From the NCBI GenBank assembly GCA_965217865.1, contig CBDCJO010000002.1, forward strand, positions 2,400,001 to 2,464,000: 64,000 nt of DNA, in the 5' to 3' direction. The DNA is from Candidatus Latescibacterota bacterium (GTDB taxonomy: Bacteria > Latescibacterota > UBA2968 > SICM01). The translations under genes were made by a program, and so were the position numbers. Shown piece by piece: positions 35,610-64,000 of this stretch. The notes under the pieces were generated by a model that had not been told where the DNA came from, ran no database searches, and saw only the letters and a list, made by a program, of their open reading frames with translations. Within the stretch, counting starts at the first letter, position 1. Every line of letters begins with the position of its first letter.

Positions 35610-35809
35610 CTAGTGTCGTGTCCCGGAAATTCCTTCAATAATTTCTCGGATAGCGGTCTGTAAACCCTGAACGGAGCGAAGGATCTCTATGTCCCGAACT
35701 ATCAGACAGTTGGTGCGTTCTTCGCTCGCTCGCTCTCGATCAAAATGACAGCCACCGCTACGTTTTTGGAGGCTTTCTTTTGTAAGGAACTTCTGGGACA
35801 CGACACTAG
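35610..35809. mobile_element. 200-bp MITE with IS630-type terminal IRs and an internal REP-like element
   Basis: CTAGTGTCGTGTCCCGGAAATTCCTT ... AAGGAACTTCTGGGACACGACACTAG; second partial copy at 55003-55090. Confidence 0.75.
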
Positions 35810-54346: not shown

Positions 54347-54742
54347 GTGGAGGAGCCGGAAATGAATACGCCCGTGGAAGATCTCGATCCGATACCCGAC
54401 GTGTCCACTCGGGACTGGCGGTACTGGAGGACGCCCGTGCTGTTCGGGGCGGGATTCTGCGCCCTCCAAGTCGCCCTCTTCGTAGTGCGGTTCGGCTTCA
54501 GGGATGCAAGCACGGCTGGTCCCGTCGCTTGGGTCCCGGTCCCTTTTGGCCTCGTCTTATTCTTCGCAGGTGGCTTGTTGGTCGGGTTGCTCGCTCAGCG
54601 GCTGGTGCGAGGATGCCACGGTGCGTGGCGGACCTTCCTGCTTGTGGCGATTGCCATAGCCACTCCCTTCGCCGTCGTGTTGGTCGGGATTCCCGTACTG
54701 ATCCGAAAGGTATGGTTGTGGCGAAAACACAAAGGGACTTAG
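54347..54742 (+). CDS. Hypothetical membrane protein
   Basis: Three hydrophobic segments; GGAGG RBS before the Met at 54362. Confidence 0.5.
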   Translation: MEEPEMNTPVEDLDPIPDVSTRDWRYWRTPVLFGAGFCALQVALFVVRFGFRDASTAGPVAWVPVPFGLVLFFAGGLLVGLLAQRLVRGCHGAWRTFLLVAIAIATPFAVVLVGIPVLIRKVWLWRKHKGT

Positions 54743-55002
54743 GGATTACTGGGGCGGCCCATACGGAACCGCGCTCATCGAAATACAGGCAGCTGATTTG
54801 ACACAACGGTTTGGTCGCGGATTTTCTCGACAAAACATACTGCAAGATGCACCTGTTTTACCTCTCATATCCACCCCCGAGCAGATTCAACGGTAATTAT
54901 ATACTTGATGCAGCCACGGGCTGGGAAATTGAATCGTTATGGGGATGGCTACAGCACTACCAGGTGTAACGCCAATTGAGGTAACAACCCCCATATCCTA
55001 GA

Positions 55003-55090
55003 TCTTCGCTGCTGGCTCTCGATCAAAATGACCGCCACCGCTACGTTTTTGGAGACTTTCTTTTGTAAGGAATTACTGGGACACGACACT
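55003..55090. repeat. Partial second copy of the 35610-35809 MITE (right part)
   Basis: CTCTCGATCAAAATGAC..GCCACCGCTACGTTTTTGGAG..GGGACACGACACT. Confidence 0.8.
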
Positions 55091-55557
55091 GATATGTATT
55101 GACCCCTGTCAAGGGCTCCGAAGGTGGTTAGTATGGGTTTATTCTTTGCATAGGTTGTTGTCCGGGGCAGAAGGGACGCTATAGCGACGGTTGATCCGAC
55201 TGATATTCGCGGGTTGGTTACCGTCTGTCCTGGGTTCGTCGCGGAGCTTCCTCAGTCTAGCGTCGAGGGTCAGCCCACTGGGGGGCGGCTCATAGTGTCG
55301 TCGAGGGTTCTCCTGACCGGCCCCTTCTGTCCCGGTTCATTCTCCATCCGCTTACGGATTCGTTGCCTGGGACGTTGATCGTGTTATGCGGCCTTTCTGA
55401 CGATGCTGCCGGGGTGTTGATGCTCCCAGGCGATGGCCCAGATGAAGCCGAGCAGCTCCCGCGCGATGGCGGTGCAGACCTTGTTCTTGGGCATCCCCCG
55501 CGCGCTCAGACGATGATACCGTCCAGAAAGTCGTTTCTGCGCCTTCCAGGCGATGGC
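55089..55557 (-). mobile_element. IS110-family remnant: transposase C-terminus (55384-55557), downstream non-coding region and right end
   Basis: AWKAQKRL..NKVCTAIARELLGFIWAIA*; end sequence TTGACAGGGGTCAATACATATCAG. Confidence 0.8.
55150..55350 (-). ncRNA. Candidate IS110 bridge/seek RNA
   Basis: Non-coding region closed by GAAGGGG/CCCTTC pairing, with segments matching the target (ACGACACTA, CGACGCTAG) and the donor end (ATATCAG). Confidence 0.6.
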
Positions 55558-55560
55558 CTA

Positions 55561-55765
55561 TATGGCGGGCGCGGTCCGTTCGGCGAGGCGTTGACTCAGC
55601 TAGTTCAGTTGTCCACCCGGCTGATCTGCCAGGAGGGTTTTGAGGCGCATCAGCGGGACCACCTGGGTGTCGATCGGTATAAACGCGGTGAAGGTCGTCG
55701 AGGCTACCGTAGCGGCTATGAGCCGGGCTATCTAGATACTGCCGAAGGCCGCCTCGAGGTCGCAT
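55561..55765 (+). mobile_element. IS256-family transposase, N-terminal fragment
   Basis: EAHQRDHLGVDRYKR..GYRSGY..LDTAEGRLEV. Confidence 0.65.
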
Positions 55766-55807
55766 ACTTTCCTATCCCCCGGAAGGCGGAAGGAAGGGGA
55801 TTGGAAG

Positions 55808-56065
55808 GTGAAACTTCTTGAAGGTGTCGTGATAGGCGTTTCGGCGGGAATTATCTTGAGTCTGTTTTTTTGGGCGAGAGACTTTGTCAAAAGACGTATC
55901 GAGAGACGCGATCAAATACGATATCTCGCCAGTTTGATAGCGAATTTCAGGGAGCTTATATACAGCGCCGAGACGATACATATTTCAGCTATAAGTCAGA
56001 AATTGACAAGAGACCAAATCCGCAAGGCGTATTACGATGACATGCGAAGGCAATTGGATCAATGA
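55808..56065 (+). CDS. Hypothetical protein with an N-terminal TM (possibly truncated)
   Basis: Hydrophobic N-terminus; AT-richer. Confidence 0.35.
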   Translation: MKLLEGVVIGVSAGIILSLFFWARDFVKRRIERRDQIRYLASLIANFRELIYSAETIHISAISQKLTRDQIRKAYYDDMRRQLDQ

Positions 56066-60019: not shown

Positions 60020-60209
60020 TAGCTCTTTTCCAACATCTCTCTCAGAGCCTGCAGATGCGATTCCAGATCATTATCTCTTTCTTCTGCTCTACCTTTGAGA
60101 AGCAGCTCCTCATAGGCGATTTTCATTGATTGCTCCTTCCCTTTGGCTCCCTCCCTAGAATCATACCTGGCAGCTCCTTTATATCTAGGTCCGATGTTGT
60201 GAAGCCTAT
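60019..60209 (-). pseudogene. 3' remnant of a gene translationally coupled to immA, cut by IS1182
   Basis: Open frame ..IAYEELLLKG..LQALREMLEKS* whose TAA overlaps the immA ATG. Confidence 0.5.
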
Positions 60210-61633
60210 CAGCCCGTTGAAGAACTACCTTTCAACGCACATAAACGGAAAAGACGCCTGGAGTGCGGGTCAGATAAATCAAGGTAAGGAGATTGAGCAG
60301 GAGACGCTGATAAGAGGTTAAAAAGGTGACCGAGGGCAGCAAAGCGTGATTGTAGGACGAGCAGTAGACGCTGCAAGGCCTTGGCCAGGTCCTGGAGGGC
60401 CTTCGGAGTACCTACGCCCATCACTTTGCGCATGAGCAGAGCCAGGTTGCAGCCCCCGATGTGGATCAGCAAACGCTTGAGGATATTGCCGCGGTCTCTC
60501 AAGTGCAACCTGCGCATGCCACCGGTATCATATGTGTGAGCGATGGTTCTTTCCACCCGTTCTGCACGACTTCGGCGCAAGGCCTTGCCGCGATCTCCCT
60601 TGATCCGGCGTCGATTCGCATATACCGCGGCCTGCTCATCTCGTCGGCCGTTCCACTTGCGGCGTCCCCGATCCGGTTCTGAAATGTAACTCCGGATGCC
60701 GCCTTGCTTCAGACTGGTCAATACATCGTTGCTATGATATCCTTTGTCCGCAACCACCTCCCGTATACGCTGTCTGTGCAAACGTTTGGCAGCTTTTTCG
60801 TCCTTCGCGACCTGCTTGAGATTGAGCTGCGCCTCGAGCAGCGTCCAGGGCAACGACTCGGTATCTCCTTCATCTGCTCCCGACAACGCCACTGCCACAA
60901 TGGCATTGGTGTCCAGATCCACCGCGTGCTCCACCTTGTGCGCCATGTGCGTGCGACCGTCCTTCATCTTAGCGATCTTGGCATCCGGGTCGTGCGGGTG
61001 CTCCCAGTCCTGGTTCGATCCCTTCTTCGGTCGCTTCTTATCGATCTTGGACAAGTCCTCGCGGGTAGGCGTTTCAATGCCCGAGGCCTTGGCCAGATTC
61101 TCAAGGAATGCCTGGTAGCCTTCACCCGTGTCACGGCGTACAATGCTGCGCATCGCGGCGTTGGCCTCCAGTGTCGTAGCATCCACGCCCAACGTCTTCC
61201 CCTTCACCAGACCCGCTTTGCACAAGACCCTCAGGATCCACTTGAAAACCGCTTCGTGAACTTCCAAGGGAAGCCGATGCCGGATGCGAGACAGGCTGGA
61301 ATGATCCGGGGTCTGTTCGTCAAGGGCATACCCCAAAAACCGGCGCAACGTCAGCGAGTCAGATACACGCCATTCGATCCCACGTTCCGAATCAAGTCCC
61401 TCGAAATACCCAATCAAAAGCATCCGAAAATAAACCCCGGGCGGAATGCCCTTGCGACCCATATGAGGAGCGTAATACCGCTGGCAAAGCCCCTCGACGA
61501 ACTCGTCGAAGCCGTTCGCCCCCAATACCTGATTCAGCTTCTCGTAGAACGGATGACCCGGAGATTTCACCAAAGTGTTCGATGCGATGTTCAGGTTTTC
61601 CTGTCTCTGTCGTCCTCGTTTTCCCATTGCCAT
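60209..61633 (-). CDS. IS1182-family transposase
   Basis: Protein identical to copy 1 except for the last residue. Confidence 0.9.
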   Translation of the reverse strand: MAMGKRGRQRQENLNIASNTLVKSPGHPFYEKLNQVLGANGFDEFVEGLCQRYYAPHMGRKGIPPGVYFRMLLIGYFEGLDSERGIEWRVSDSLTLRRFLGYALDEQTPDHSSLSRIRHRLPLEVHEAVFKWILRVLCKAGLVKGKTLGVDATTLEANAAMRSIVRRDTGEGYQAFLENLAKASGIETPTREDLSKIDKKRPKKGSNQDWEHPHDPDAKIAKMKDGRTHMAHKVEHAVDLDTNAIVAVALSGADEGDTESLPWTLLEAQLNLKQVAKDEKAAKRLHRQRIREVVADKGYHSNDVLTSLKQGGIRSYISEPDRGRRKWNGRRDEQAAVYANRRRIKGDRGKALRRSRAERVERTIAHTYDTGGMRRLHLRDRGNILKRLLIHIGGCNLALLMRKVMGVGTPKALQDLAKALQRLLLVLQSRFAALGHLFNLLSASPAQSPYLDLSDPHSRRLFRLCALKGSSSTG

Positions 61634-61736
61634 TTGCTCGTCCTCCCTTCTCAGTTTGAACCTGATATATCATAGGACCAAACCACAAGGAAAGACAACA
61701 GTCATCTTGGCATAAACGCACTTTTTCAACAGGCTG
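60210..61736 (-). mobile_element. IS1182-family element, copy 2 (1527 bp)
   Basis: Same IRs and essentially the same sequence as 34083-35609; flanks CTAT / ATAG. Confidence 0.9.
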
Positions 61737-62525
61737 ATAGGCTTGGATGATACCTGACATCGACGCAAACAACCGCTTTTTATCGCGATCCTTCCTGCTG
61801 AGTAAACCGTCAGGTTCTTGCAACCACTTTATAGTATTGTGAAGGAAATAGGCTAGGTCCATCATCGGCGTTCCGTAGCTGAAGTGATCGCAGTCTACGA
61901 TGCCAAGGACGCGGTCTTCGCTGCACACCACGTTGCCAGCGTGAAGATCACGATGTATTAGCTGGAGAGGCAAGTCGGTCAAGGTGGCTCGCATTTCGGC
62001 TTCCACACCATTAACAAACTCTGAGAGTTCATTCGCCTTTCCGACCTCAAGTACTCCCTTAAGACGGGAACTCCGCTCCAAAAACTCCCCCAATGGATCA
62101 TTCTTCCATGTCGTTGCCGCGAGTTCCAGGTTGGGGTAGTTTGCGAGGGAAACATGCAGTTGAGCGAAAGCCTTACCATACGAACGCATAAGATCCTCCG
62201 GCTTCCCAGGCTTTGGATCGTCATCAGAGATAAGACACGGTGAAAGGGTGAATCGCGTTCCTTCAATATCCACAGTCTGCTGACCATCTCTGGCTCGAAG
62301 AGGAACAGCAACCGGAACTCCCTGTGAGGCGAGATGACGTAGCAGGTCGAACTGAAGGTCGAGCCTTTCGTGCGCTCCCTCGCCGACGAGTTTGAGAATA
62401 AGATCATCGCCGTTGGCACGTCTGACTCTGAACACCTTTTCCGGGCTCAGTTCCTCCAGAGAATGGGCCTGCGATATGCCCCATGCCTGGAGAGCCGCTA
62501 ATGCTTTTTCACGAATAATCATCAT
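61737..62525 (-). pseudogene. Aminoglycoside phosphotransferase / type II homoserine kinase family, 3'-truncated by IS1182
   Basis: LILK, QLIHRDLHAGNV, GIVDCD, DLAY. Confidence 0.8.
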
Positions 62526-62624: not shown

Positions 62625-64000
62625 TATTAATCTAAAGGCCCTCGTTGTCAGGAAAAGTTATTATTTGAGGTCCGGATATCTCAATAACCTTTCCACCACA
62701 GGAGGGCCTTATGCGATACGCGAAGATCGACTCCGACTATTTCTGTGGCATCGATCTCCACGCCAGAACCATGTATGTTTGTGTAATGAGTAAGATGGGG
62801 GAGATTGTGTTCCAGCGCAATCTGAAAAACGACTTCAAACTCTTACTGCAGGTGCTGGAAGCTCACCTCGGTAGCATCGCCGTCGGGGTGGAGTCAACCT
62901 TCAACTGGTACTGGCTGGCTGACGGATGTCACAAGGCCGGAATTCCATTCTACCTGGGACACGCCCTGTATATGAAGGCGATCCACGGGGGCAAAAAGAA
63001 GAACGACCGTCTCGATTCCAGAATGCTGGCAGAGCTGATGCGCTGCAACCTGTTCCCGATGGCCTATGCCTATCCGCAAGAGATGCGGGCAACCCGGGAC
63101 CTGCTCCGGCGAAGGCACCGGTTTGTGGCCTTACGGGCTGAGTGCTACACCCACATCCAGAACACCTTCTCTCAGCAGGCTATCCTGGATCCTCTCAGCG
63201 ACCAGGTCAAAAAGAAGACCAGCAGGAGAAAGCTGTGCGAACGTCTGGCCGACCCAGATCTGGGTATGTCTGTGGGCTGCGATCTGGACCTGGTTGACTC
63301 CCTGGACAAAATGATCTACAAAGTCGAGAAGCAAGTCCTTGCACAGGCCAAACATCACGATCGCAATGCCCTGTCTATCCTGATGACGGTTCCCGGACTT
63401 GGGGAGATGCTGGCCATGACCATCCTGTATGAAATCCACACGGTTGAACGGTTCAAATCCGCTTCAGCCTTCTCCTCCTACAGCCGGCTGATCAAAGTCG
63501 AGAGAGAGTCCGCTGGGAAGAAGACAAAGGACGGGAATAACAAAATCGGAAACTCACACCTAAAGTGGGCCTTCTCGGAAATCATCCTCGTGGCTCAGCG
63601 ATGGTCAGAACCGATCAATAGAAACTACGAGAAACTCAAGAGCAAACACGGTCCGGGAAAAGCCAAGAGCGTCATCGCTCATAAATTCGGCGTGGCCGCC
63701 TACCAAATGCTCAAAAGTGGCCAGGCATTCGACGAGAAACGGTTTGTAGCATAATGGGTGGGGCGGTTAACCCGGCAGCTAACTGGCAGGGCAACGTCCG
63801 GACAATAGCCCAGCTCTCCCGCTGTGATTGGGAAGCCGCCTTCACCCCTTATATAGAACATAGATGAGCGGATCTGAGACAGTCAGTCCGTCTGCCCCCG
63901 CGATGAACCCGAACCTAACCGATGGACCATCCGTCGTGTGAGCAGAGGAGGGCAAACAGGTCCCGCAGGGGAGATGTCATTCCAATTGTCTCCCCAAGGT
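62625..64000 (+). mobile_element. IS110-family element; boundaries approximate and right end possibly outside the window
   Basis: Transposase followed by a non-coding region of more than 240 bp. Confidence 0.7.
62711..63754 (+). CDS. IS110-family transposase (DEDD recombinase)
   Basis: GIDLH, VGVES, KKNDRLDS, TVPGLG, RESAGK, GNSHLKWAF; GGAGGG RBS. Confidence 0.92.
   Translation: MRYAKIDSDYFCGIDLHARTMYVCVMSKMGEIVFQRNLKNDFKLLLQVLEAHLGSIAVGVESTFNWYWLADGCHKAGIPFYLGHALYMKAIHGGKKKNDRLDSRMLAELMRCNLFPMAYAYPQEMRATRDLLRRRHRFVALRAECYTHIQNTFSQQAILDPLSDQVKKKTSRRKLCERLADPDLGMSVGCDLDLVDSLDKMIYKVEKQVLAQAKHHDRNALSILMTVPGLGEMLAMTILYEIHTVERFKSASAFSSYSRLIKVERESAGKKTKDGNNKIGNSHLKWAFSEIILVAQRWSEPINRNYEKLKSKHGPGKAKSVIAHKFGVAAYQMLKSGQAFDEKRFVA

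Follow-up and report, generated by a model that had tools for sequence, protein, structure and literature searches.

What placed the end of one insertion sequence at the very tip of another mobile element? The question is raised by positions 55003-55557 of the window (the 64,000-nucleotide stretch analysed here, from the genome of a Candidatus Latescibacterota bacterium, G000 below), where an initial annotation had seen an IS110-type right end fused to a MITE end and had proposed that the IS carries an RNA programmed against IS630-type ends. We conclude that the locus very probably holds the decayed right third of an IS1111-type element, positioned exactly where an IS630-type MITE ends, and we predict that a seekRNA-like target loop guided the insertion of this element. 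The IS is likely to have been steered by its own guide RNA because a nine-base stretch of that RNA matches the MITE tip. The features at and around the junction are the following.

55003..55090, plus strand: right arm of an IS630-type MITE, left-truncated (positions 110-198 of a ~200-bp element)
55078..55089, plus strand: MITE terminal inverted repeat GGGACACGACAC, followed in intact copies by TAG and in the window by T and the IS
55089..55090, no strand: crossover core, CT on the plus strand and AG in IS orientation
55089..55599, minus strand: remnant of an IS1111-type IS (IS110 family), right-hand ~510 of ~1540 bp
55093..55103, minus strand: subterminal inverted repeat of the right end, GTCAATACATA; relatives and the G000 left-end fragments carry the inverse, TATGTATTGAC, at their left ends
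55384..55599, minus strand: C-terminal remnant of a DEDD transposase, approximately residues 305-375 of 375 (translation, BLASTP)
55600..55794, plus strand: fragment of an IS256/Mutator-family transposase (PF00872, E = 8e-5, residues 80-144 of frame 55363-55818)

All strings listed in the initial annotation were found where it had placed them (TAGTGTCGT at 55293-55301, CTAGCGTCG at 55257-55265, CTGATAT at 55200-55206 and again at 55089-55095), and the junction it described was confirmed: the right end of the IS is joined to the MITE end at a CT core (AG in IS orientation), displacing the CTAG. In GGGACACGACAC/T/GATATG, which spans 55078-55096 (slashes in sequences mark boundaries here and below), the T is followed by GATATGTATTGAC, and the core combines the final base of the MITE repeat with the T from the flanking TA. 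The MITE itself was identified by comparison with a full copy at window 35610-35809, to which 55003-55090 is 93.3% identical over 89 nt; BLAST gave 26 MITE matches in G000, including 19 that cover nearly all of the ~200 bp. The 13-mer MITE end GACACGACACTAG has 38 exact occurrences in G000 with TAG next in 38/38, and there is a single GACACGACACT/GATATG. A 1171-bp element (C2:685135-686305) shares the terminal repeat of the MITE and contains a 380-aa frame with Pfam matches to DDE_3 (1e-20) and HTH_32/23/28/29, which is of IS630 type. MITE ends are flanked by CTA...TAG, as expected for TA duplication within CTAG; the base preceding CTAG at intact ends is A in 11 cases, G in 11, C in 9 and T in 7. 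The identity as an IS630-derived MITE therefore holds, given the termini shared with the DDE_3- and HTH-containing element and the CTA...TAG flanks. The MITE end in the window is flanked by CA, as against the TA left by IS630-type insertion. Of the 44 copies of TAGTGTCGT in the 6.4-Mb genome, 39 are IS630/MITE ends. The short matches exceed chance, and the IS-internal copy occupies the guide position of a conserved RNA (see below).

The IS copy was compared with full elements (L030 and L031), whose positions 1047-1542 and 1034-1550, respectively, match window 55089-55593 in BLAST. Its minus-strand frame 55557-55387 encodes 57 residues, 52 of them identical (91%) to residues 319-375 of P0005, a 375-aa protein with PF01548 and PF02371 domains. 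The window copy keeps ~70 C-terminal codons lying 3' of PF02371, and both domains are absent from it. The natural stop is at 55384-55386, and an in-frame stop interrupts the remnant at 55558-55560. Because 13 further homologous codons continue upstream past this in-frame stop, the remnant extends to ~55599; the initial annotation was right that an IS remnant lies in its interval but ended it too early, at 55557. The IS256-type fragment borders the remnant on its upstream side, on the opposite strand. At the other end, a non-coding region (NCR) of ~295 nt separates the natural stop from the terminus at 55089, with the terminal extension TC at 55091-55092 between GTCAATACATA and the core. Without a left end and ~300 transposase codons, with an in-frame stop and with no intact copy in the genome, the window copy is dead. 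Its own insertion and activity are beyond direct check, because the left junction and the enzyme are lost. A promoter and terminator scan of 55050-55600 returned 0 sites. Contigs from four metatranscriptome RNA runs covered 55585-55700 in the IS256 fragment (in one run, short related pieces as well); none of them reached the guide-RNA region.

With the 469-nt remnant as a BLAST query, three further pieces were found in G000, two of which keep the right terminus (C2:3730527-3730696, 81.5% identical; C1:304974-305072, 72%). Both adjoin a MITE terminus at the identical base (..GACACAATACT/GATATG and ..GATACGACACT/GATATG), so that 3/3 right-end remnants in G000 sit at an IS630-MITE terminus at the same base, in keeping with the expectation in the initial annotation that other copies would be flanked in this way. 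The C2 and C1 remnants lie at the opposite MITE end from the window copy; since both MITE ends were used, at least two separate events must have taken place. BLAST with full relatives recovered seven left-end fragments, several internal fragments and four right-hand pieces of this IS in G000. The left-end fragments all have unrelated DNA on their left, and 4/6 distinct junctions read GCTAG/ACC. No second copy of the transposase C-terminus was detected in G000 by tblastn, and a search of the same order, which covered three genomes, gave no match outside G000. As fragments alone remain, the IS family is extinct in G000.

The anatomy of the intact element was therefore taken from relatives. A protein search gave 827 of them, mostly of 370-376 aa; one genome per species was scanned, yielding 96 encoding stretches, from which a set of 80 loci was retained, including 12 in one Latescibacterota chromosome (G003). 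End alignments in IS orientation gave the plan left flank ..(Y)CT-AG / ACCT-TATGTATTGAC .. tnp for the left part and ~300-nt NCR .. GTCAATACATA-TC-AG / right flank for the right part. Fifteen full relatives and the seven G000 left-end fragments have the left subterminal repeat, AG stands at both junctions in 15/15 aligned full-length relatives, and the left end is short, with ~110-120 nt upstream of the tnp start. P0005 and P0003 contain GLVPSEHSSG, which conforms to the C-terminal-domain motif GL-P----S(T)G given for this group in the available part of PMC11187229; the window copy no longer includes that region. The GL-P----SG motif, the long NCR after tnp and the subterminal repeats with their short extensions are all features of the IS1111 group.

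The NCR was then analysed for a structured RNA. Its predicted elements in the window are:

55158..55333, minus strand: seekRNA/bridge-RNA-like RNA with outer stem, target-binding internal loop and donor-binding loop (predicted roles)
55293..55301, minus strand: guide 1, 5' side of the target loop, RNA ACGACACUA, alignment columns 35-43
55257..55263, minus strand: guide 2, 3' side of the target loop, RNA ACGCUAG (DNA CTAGCGT), columns 75-81
55200..55207, minus strand: donor-loop segment AAUAUCAG, with the same sequence as the right end of the IS (ATATC plus core AG)

The NCR core was obtained from 57 loci by BLAST-anchored extraction (41 distinct sequences, 30 of them aligned, window included), a procedure that replaced a whole-NCR alignment (78 loci, too gappy) and an outer-stem motif scan (too noisy). 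The RNAalifold consensus comprises an outer stem, a GGAG-CUCC stem, an internal loop closed on the outside by CCUC with GAGG and on the inside by a variable hairpin, and a second domain in which CGACG with CGUCG encloses a GCGG-CCGC hairpin with asymmetric loops. In this structure 95.5% of cells were paired and 13 pairs had changed on both sides, compared with 36-50% and 5-9 pairs in a control that shifted the partners by 1-3 columns. Of the six helices, four are invariant and therefore uninformative on covariation in either direction. When 28 relatives, excluding the window, were used to build a covariance model (R1), it gave a single match in the 64-kb window, at 55158-55333 on the minus strand (158.9 bits, E = 4e-39), which covered the full length of the model (positions 1-175); across G000, R1 found one other, partial copy. 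The window RNA folded alone was no more stable than shuffled sequences (z = -0.46), and an Rfam scan of 54700-55900 produced chance-level matches to unrelated families alone, so that no Rfam family fits. The R1 match and the fold kept by compensatory changes support the earlier proposal that the NCR encodes a bridge/seekRNA-like RNA. One gammaproteobacterial locus (L061:3743-4836) has four tandem NCR cores at 335-nt spacing downstream of a single transposase gene.

Guide 1, ACGACACUA, is the reverse complement of TAGTGTCGT and is complementary to TAG plus TGTCGT, the first bases of the MITE repeat. The 9/9 match pointed out in the initial annotation is thus located in the target loop, in columns that vary among relatives and track their right flanks. 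Guide 2 is identical to the predicted left flank ..GCTAG. The accompanying 8/9 match, CTAGCGTCG, had to be shortened: seven of its letters lie in the target loop, but the terminal CG (55264-55265) is scaffold rather than guide, being part of a conserved CCCUCG in which C55264 is in the stem and the invariant G55265 closes the loop. CTGATAT (RNA AUAUCAG), which had been read as a donor match, is on the 3' side of the second domain, in the donor loop. The donor segment is (A/C/U)AUAUCAG where the terminus is ACATATCAG; the alphaproteobacterial relatives have the donor segment CAUCAGAG in the loop CATCAGAG and the terminus CATGAGAG, so that in this group the segment changes with the IS terminus. 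L057 and L059 have one mismatch in this segment (AUCUCAG). For the IS left end, inspection of the alignments by eye gave partial, inconsistent matches alone, none of them convincing. The letters 3' of guide 2 (A, C/G and C/A/U in columns 82-84) often repeat the start of the IS left end (ACC/ACA); they resemble the post-insertion left junction and may represent a handshake-like contact, inconsistently across groups.

Variability was concentrated in the distal guide letters. Mean entropy was 1.62 bits in columns 35-40 (the six distal letters of guide 1) and 1.51 bits in columns 75-78 (the four distal letters of guide 2), against 0.11 and 0.18 bits in scaffold columns 23-34 and 85-101, respectively. 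The core-proximal letters are nearly fixed, CUA in 28/30 and UAG in 29/30 sequences. The initial annotation had reasoned that matching segments within invariant scaffold would speak against guides, and some do belong there, namely the three core-proximal letters, the terminal CG and, among close relatives, the donor segment; the remaining guide letters are variable.

We asked whether the variable letters follow the DNA beside each element. Scaffold anchors were found in 66/81 sources (absent in the 15 L060, L072-L074, L079, L080, L083-L086, L092, L097, L098, L100 and L109), and the right terminus was not located in 7 more (L063, L065, L066, L077, L082, L096 and L107). For guide 1, each of 29 distinct guides contributed one pair, its six predicted letters being set against the six bases that follow the terminus. 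Agreement was observed at 116/174 positions, compared with 54.8 ± 6.2 in shuffles (maximum 81; 0/20000 reached the observed value). The window guide matched its own right flank at 6/6. Most relatives match the right flank at the first four or five bases from the core only, and L037, L042, L054, L095 and L102 matched poorly, at 0-2 of 6. Guide 2 was compared with the five bases before AG for 18 distinct guides, omitting 5 loci without a located left end and scoring one contig-end locus as zero; 51/90 positions agreed (shuffles 32.3 ± 3.6; 0/20000 reached the observed value).

By analogy with characterised elements, the RNA would be produced and would form a complex with the DEDD recombinase. 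The top strand TAGTGTCGT would pair with guide 1 (ACGACACUA), and the left flank, on its bottom strand, with guide 2 (..GCUAG); the joined IS ends would be read by the donor loop (AUAUCAG), and the RNA would in this way hold the recombinase on the joined ends and the target. Strand exchange is predicted at the AG core, and the IS would therefore land between the flanking CT and AG/TGTCG; the IS630 repeat would stay intact, with the flanking TA alone changed to CA. The target is best written 5'-(G)CTAG/TGTCGT-3', the left part being host DNA of the MITE and the right part the MITE itself.

The nearly fixed letters of the loop arms (CTA in 28/30, TAG in 29/30) could instead reflect a requirement of the protein or of the core, as would be expected if the recombinase protein, not the RNA, recognised CTAG plus the repeat and the complementarity in the NCR were a by-product such as traces of past junctions. 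We consider this very unlikely: among relatives with 45-95% protein identity the variable letters of the loops follow the flanks, compensatory changes preserve the fold that contains the guide loops, and the seekRNA was reported, in the portion of the study available, to be essential and reprogrammable in four IS1111-family members, ISEc11, ISKpn4, ISPst6 and ISPa11 (Siddiquee et al. 2024, PMC11187229).

RNA guidance can also be accepted with a different target. In the initial annotation the two guides together predicted a near-palindromic site formed by two abutted IS630/MITE ends, each guide reading one of them, and ACGCUAG does agree with the reversed MITE repeat (ACACTAG) at 6/7 positions. 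The one mismatch (G versus A in the MITE) is at the fifth base, one of the five nucleotides that agree with the flanks in relatives, guide 2 being ~5-7 nt long. The palindrome CGACACTAGTGTCG has 0 occurrences in G000. The four CTAG-type left-end junctions in G000 read GCTAG with unrelated DNA upstream, and 15/15 aligned full copies have unrelated left flanks that share only (G/Y)CTAG. The abutted-ends target is very improbable on these grounds and was abandoned in favour of (G)CTAG followed by a single MITE end.

What the relatives sit in bears on both the order of events and the generality of the target. In G003, the 100 nt to the right of the IS are present at least 40 times. Among 34 ends from 30 fetched loci, 4 carry the IS (..ATATCAG/TGTCCC), 16 read CTAG/TGTCCC, 4 NTAG and 10 other sequences. 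The IS-free CTAG/TGTCCC ends are empty sites, differing from the occupied ones by the IS alone. A junction formed the other way round or by accident, with the MITE inserting beside a resident IS end or a rearrangement joining the two, would suit a locus that is a graveyard of fragments (truncated MITE, truncated IS, IS256 fragment) but is scarcely credible given a MITE end flanked by CA and not by the TA of an IS630 insertion, the same junction base at three loci involving both MITE ends, and the empty and occupied sites of G003.

Guided insertion of the IS into a pre-existing boundary, our preferred reading, also accords with right flanks elsewhere. The right-flank element has 18 copies in G006, where it is ~126 bp long and ends in inverted repeats; G007 has 73 copies, and three alphaproteobacterial genomes have 40, 13 and 20. 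Against this reading, the element has 1 copy in each of G004, G005, G008 and G011, and the two closest relatives, L030 and L043, lie beside single-copy DNA in fragmented assemblies. A multi-copy repeat forms the flank in G000, G003, G006, G007, G009, G010 and G012. Pfam annotation of 97 open frames of at least 200 aa in right flanks gave:

L037, L062, L064, L090: IS630-type DDE_3 gene directly adjacent
L081: HTH part only
L056, L059, L087: other transposase types
Remaining loci: ordinary genes or no Pfam match

In four lineages besides G000 the flank is a multi-copy element or an IS630-type gene. From the multi-copy right flanks and the adjacent IS630-type genes we conclude that targeting the boundaries of repeated mobile elements is common in the clade, though not demonstrated for every member. 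The fixation of UAG and CUA in 28-29/30 RNAs, taken with the IS630-type or multi-copy flanks, suggests a broader reading, which we offer tentatively and hold at somewhat short of probable: this phylum-spanning IS1111-type clade may be a specialised hyperparasite of TA-duplicating transposons (IS630 elements and their MITEs), with loop arms fixed for (C)TAG. If so, (C)TAG would be hard-wired and only the letters reading the terminal repeat of the victim would be re-written between hosts.

Elements that use the repeats of others are not without precedent. IS4321 and IS5075 (IS1111 family) reportedly have the terminal repeats of the Tn21 family as their specific target; like the present family they take the terminal repeat of another transposon, of the Tn3/Tn21 rather than the IS630/MITE kind. 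IS1383 is said, in work attributed to Muller et al. in 2001, to integrate into the inverted repeats of IS1384. IS1111 inserts in QMITE2 of Coxiella, where the site, as described in the part of the source available, is a GTAG REP inside the MITE, different from the element boundary used by the present family (PMC5896051). Both IS1383 and the Coxiella IS1111 resemble the present family in having the repeats of another element or a MITE as their site, in different elements and hosts. In the literature searched, which covered few subscription journals, IS630 ends were not found reported as the target of any IS1111-type element; in the supplements of PMC11187229, so far as available in text form, 'IS630' is absent and neither 'MITE' nor 'CTAG' occurs in a relevant context.

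The core of the present family, AG, differs from that of IS621, which is CT. The bridge RNA of IS621 (IS110 group; Durrant et al. 2024, PMC11208160) resembles the present RNA, in the sections of the report available, in having two internal loops, one of which reads the target, on both of its strands, at a 2-nt core, while the other reads the element ends. In IS621 the RNA is located in the left end upstream of the gene, with guide order reversed relative to IS1111, according to the available text of PMC11187229. With the IS1111 seekRNA elements the present family shares a DEDD transposase, a long NCR that follows tnp and inverted repeats in subterminal position; in both sets of RNAs the match to the top strand comes first, on the 5' side, the match to the bottom strand second, and the two overlap in the target, here at TAG (PMC11187229, same portion). 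The likeness is one of described architecture. The present protein is longer (375 aa versus 330-350 for the IS1111 family), and its conserved RNA unit is ~175 nt including the donor-like loop, as against 82-96 nt for purified IS1111 seekRNAs (both as given in the accessible text of PMC11187229); in IS1111 elements the donor nucleotides are often in a multi-loop, according to the part of PMC11208160 available. The target, CTAG plus an IS630-type terminus, is unlike those of the published IS1111 seekRNA members.

The RNA-guided hit on IS630 ends put forward in the initial annotation is therefore supported by the loop match, the co-variation and the 3/3 remnants, though not as a novel kind of event, since precedents exist: the mechanism and the targeting of other elements' repeats were already known, and IS630-type ends are the new target. 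The family would provide a natural example of an IS110/IS1111 guide RNA set to the boundary of another transposon, which offers a neutral, multi-copy and horizontally travelling landing site. Its compact conserved scaffold of ~175 nt, with 28+ diverse natural guide sets and their targets, could aid modelling of IS1111-type guide reading. For G000 itself, the finding explains a piece of transposon debris only.

Several further observations concern the mobile elements of this genome. The remnant at C2:3730527-3730700 (L111/L152) ends exactly at the CTAG of guide 2, with unrelated AT-rich DNA upstream; the break resembles ending by another CTAG-seeking element or a deletion. A separate, unrelated IS110-family transposase gene lies near the end of the window (63374-63628, plus strand; PF02371 match, 361-aa frame), and G000 has 25 PF02371-type IS110-family matches belonging to several sub-families. 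At window 60125-61805, minus strand, there is a ~1.65-kb element encoding a 474-aa DUF772/DDE_Tnp_1 (IS5/IS1182-type) transposase, present in ~90-97 copies in G000, with one 37-nt stretch exact 91 times.

A second MITE-like repeat, with ends CAGCCYGTTGAARAA, has 191 ends in G000, for example to the right of the MITE at window 35810. CTAG precedes 98/191 of these ends, the others being preceded mostly by TTAG, CTAT, CTAA or ATAG. This repeat often shares one CTAG with the IS630-MITE, and the G006 relatives have a similar repeat as their target. In G003, an IS copy (L032:3936-3975) lies beside a repeat whose first ~35 bases are like those of the G000 MITE (TGTTGTGTCCTGCAAATAACTTCAATAATT versus TGTCGTGTCCCGGAAATTCCTTCAATAATT), a likeness that points to the same MITE family in a different lineage.
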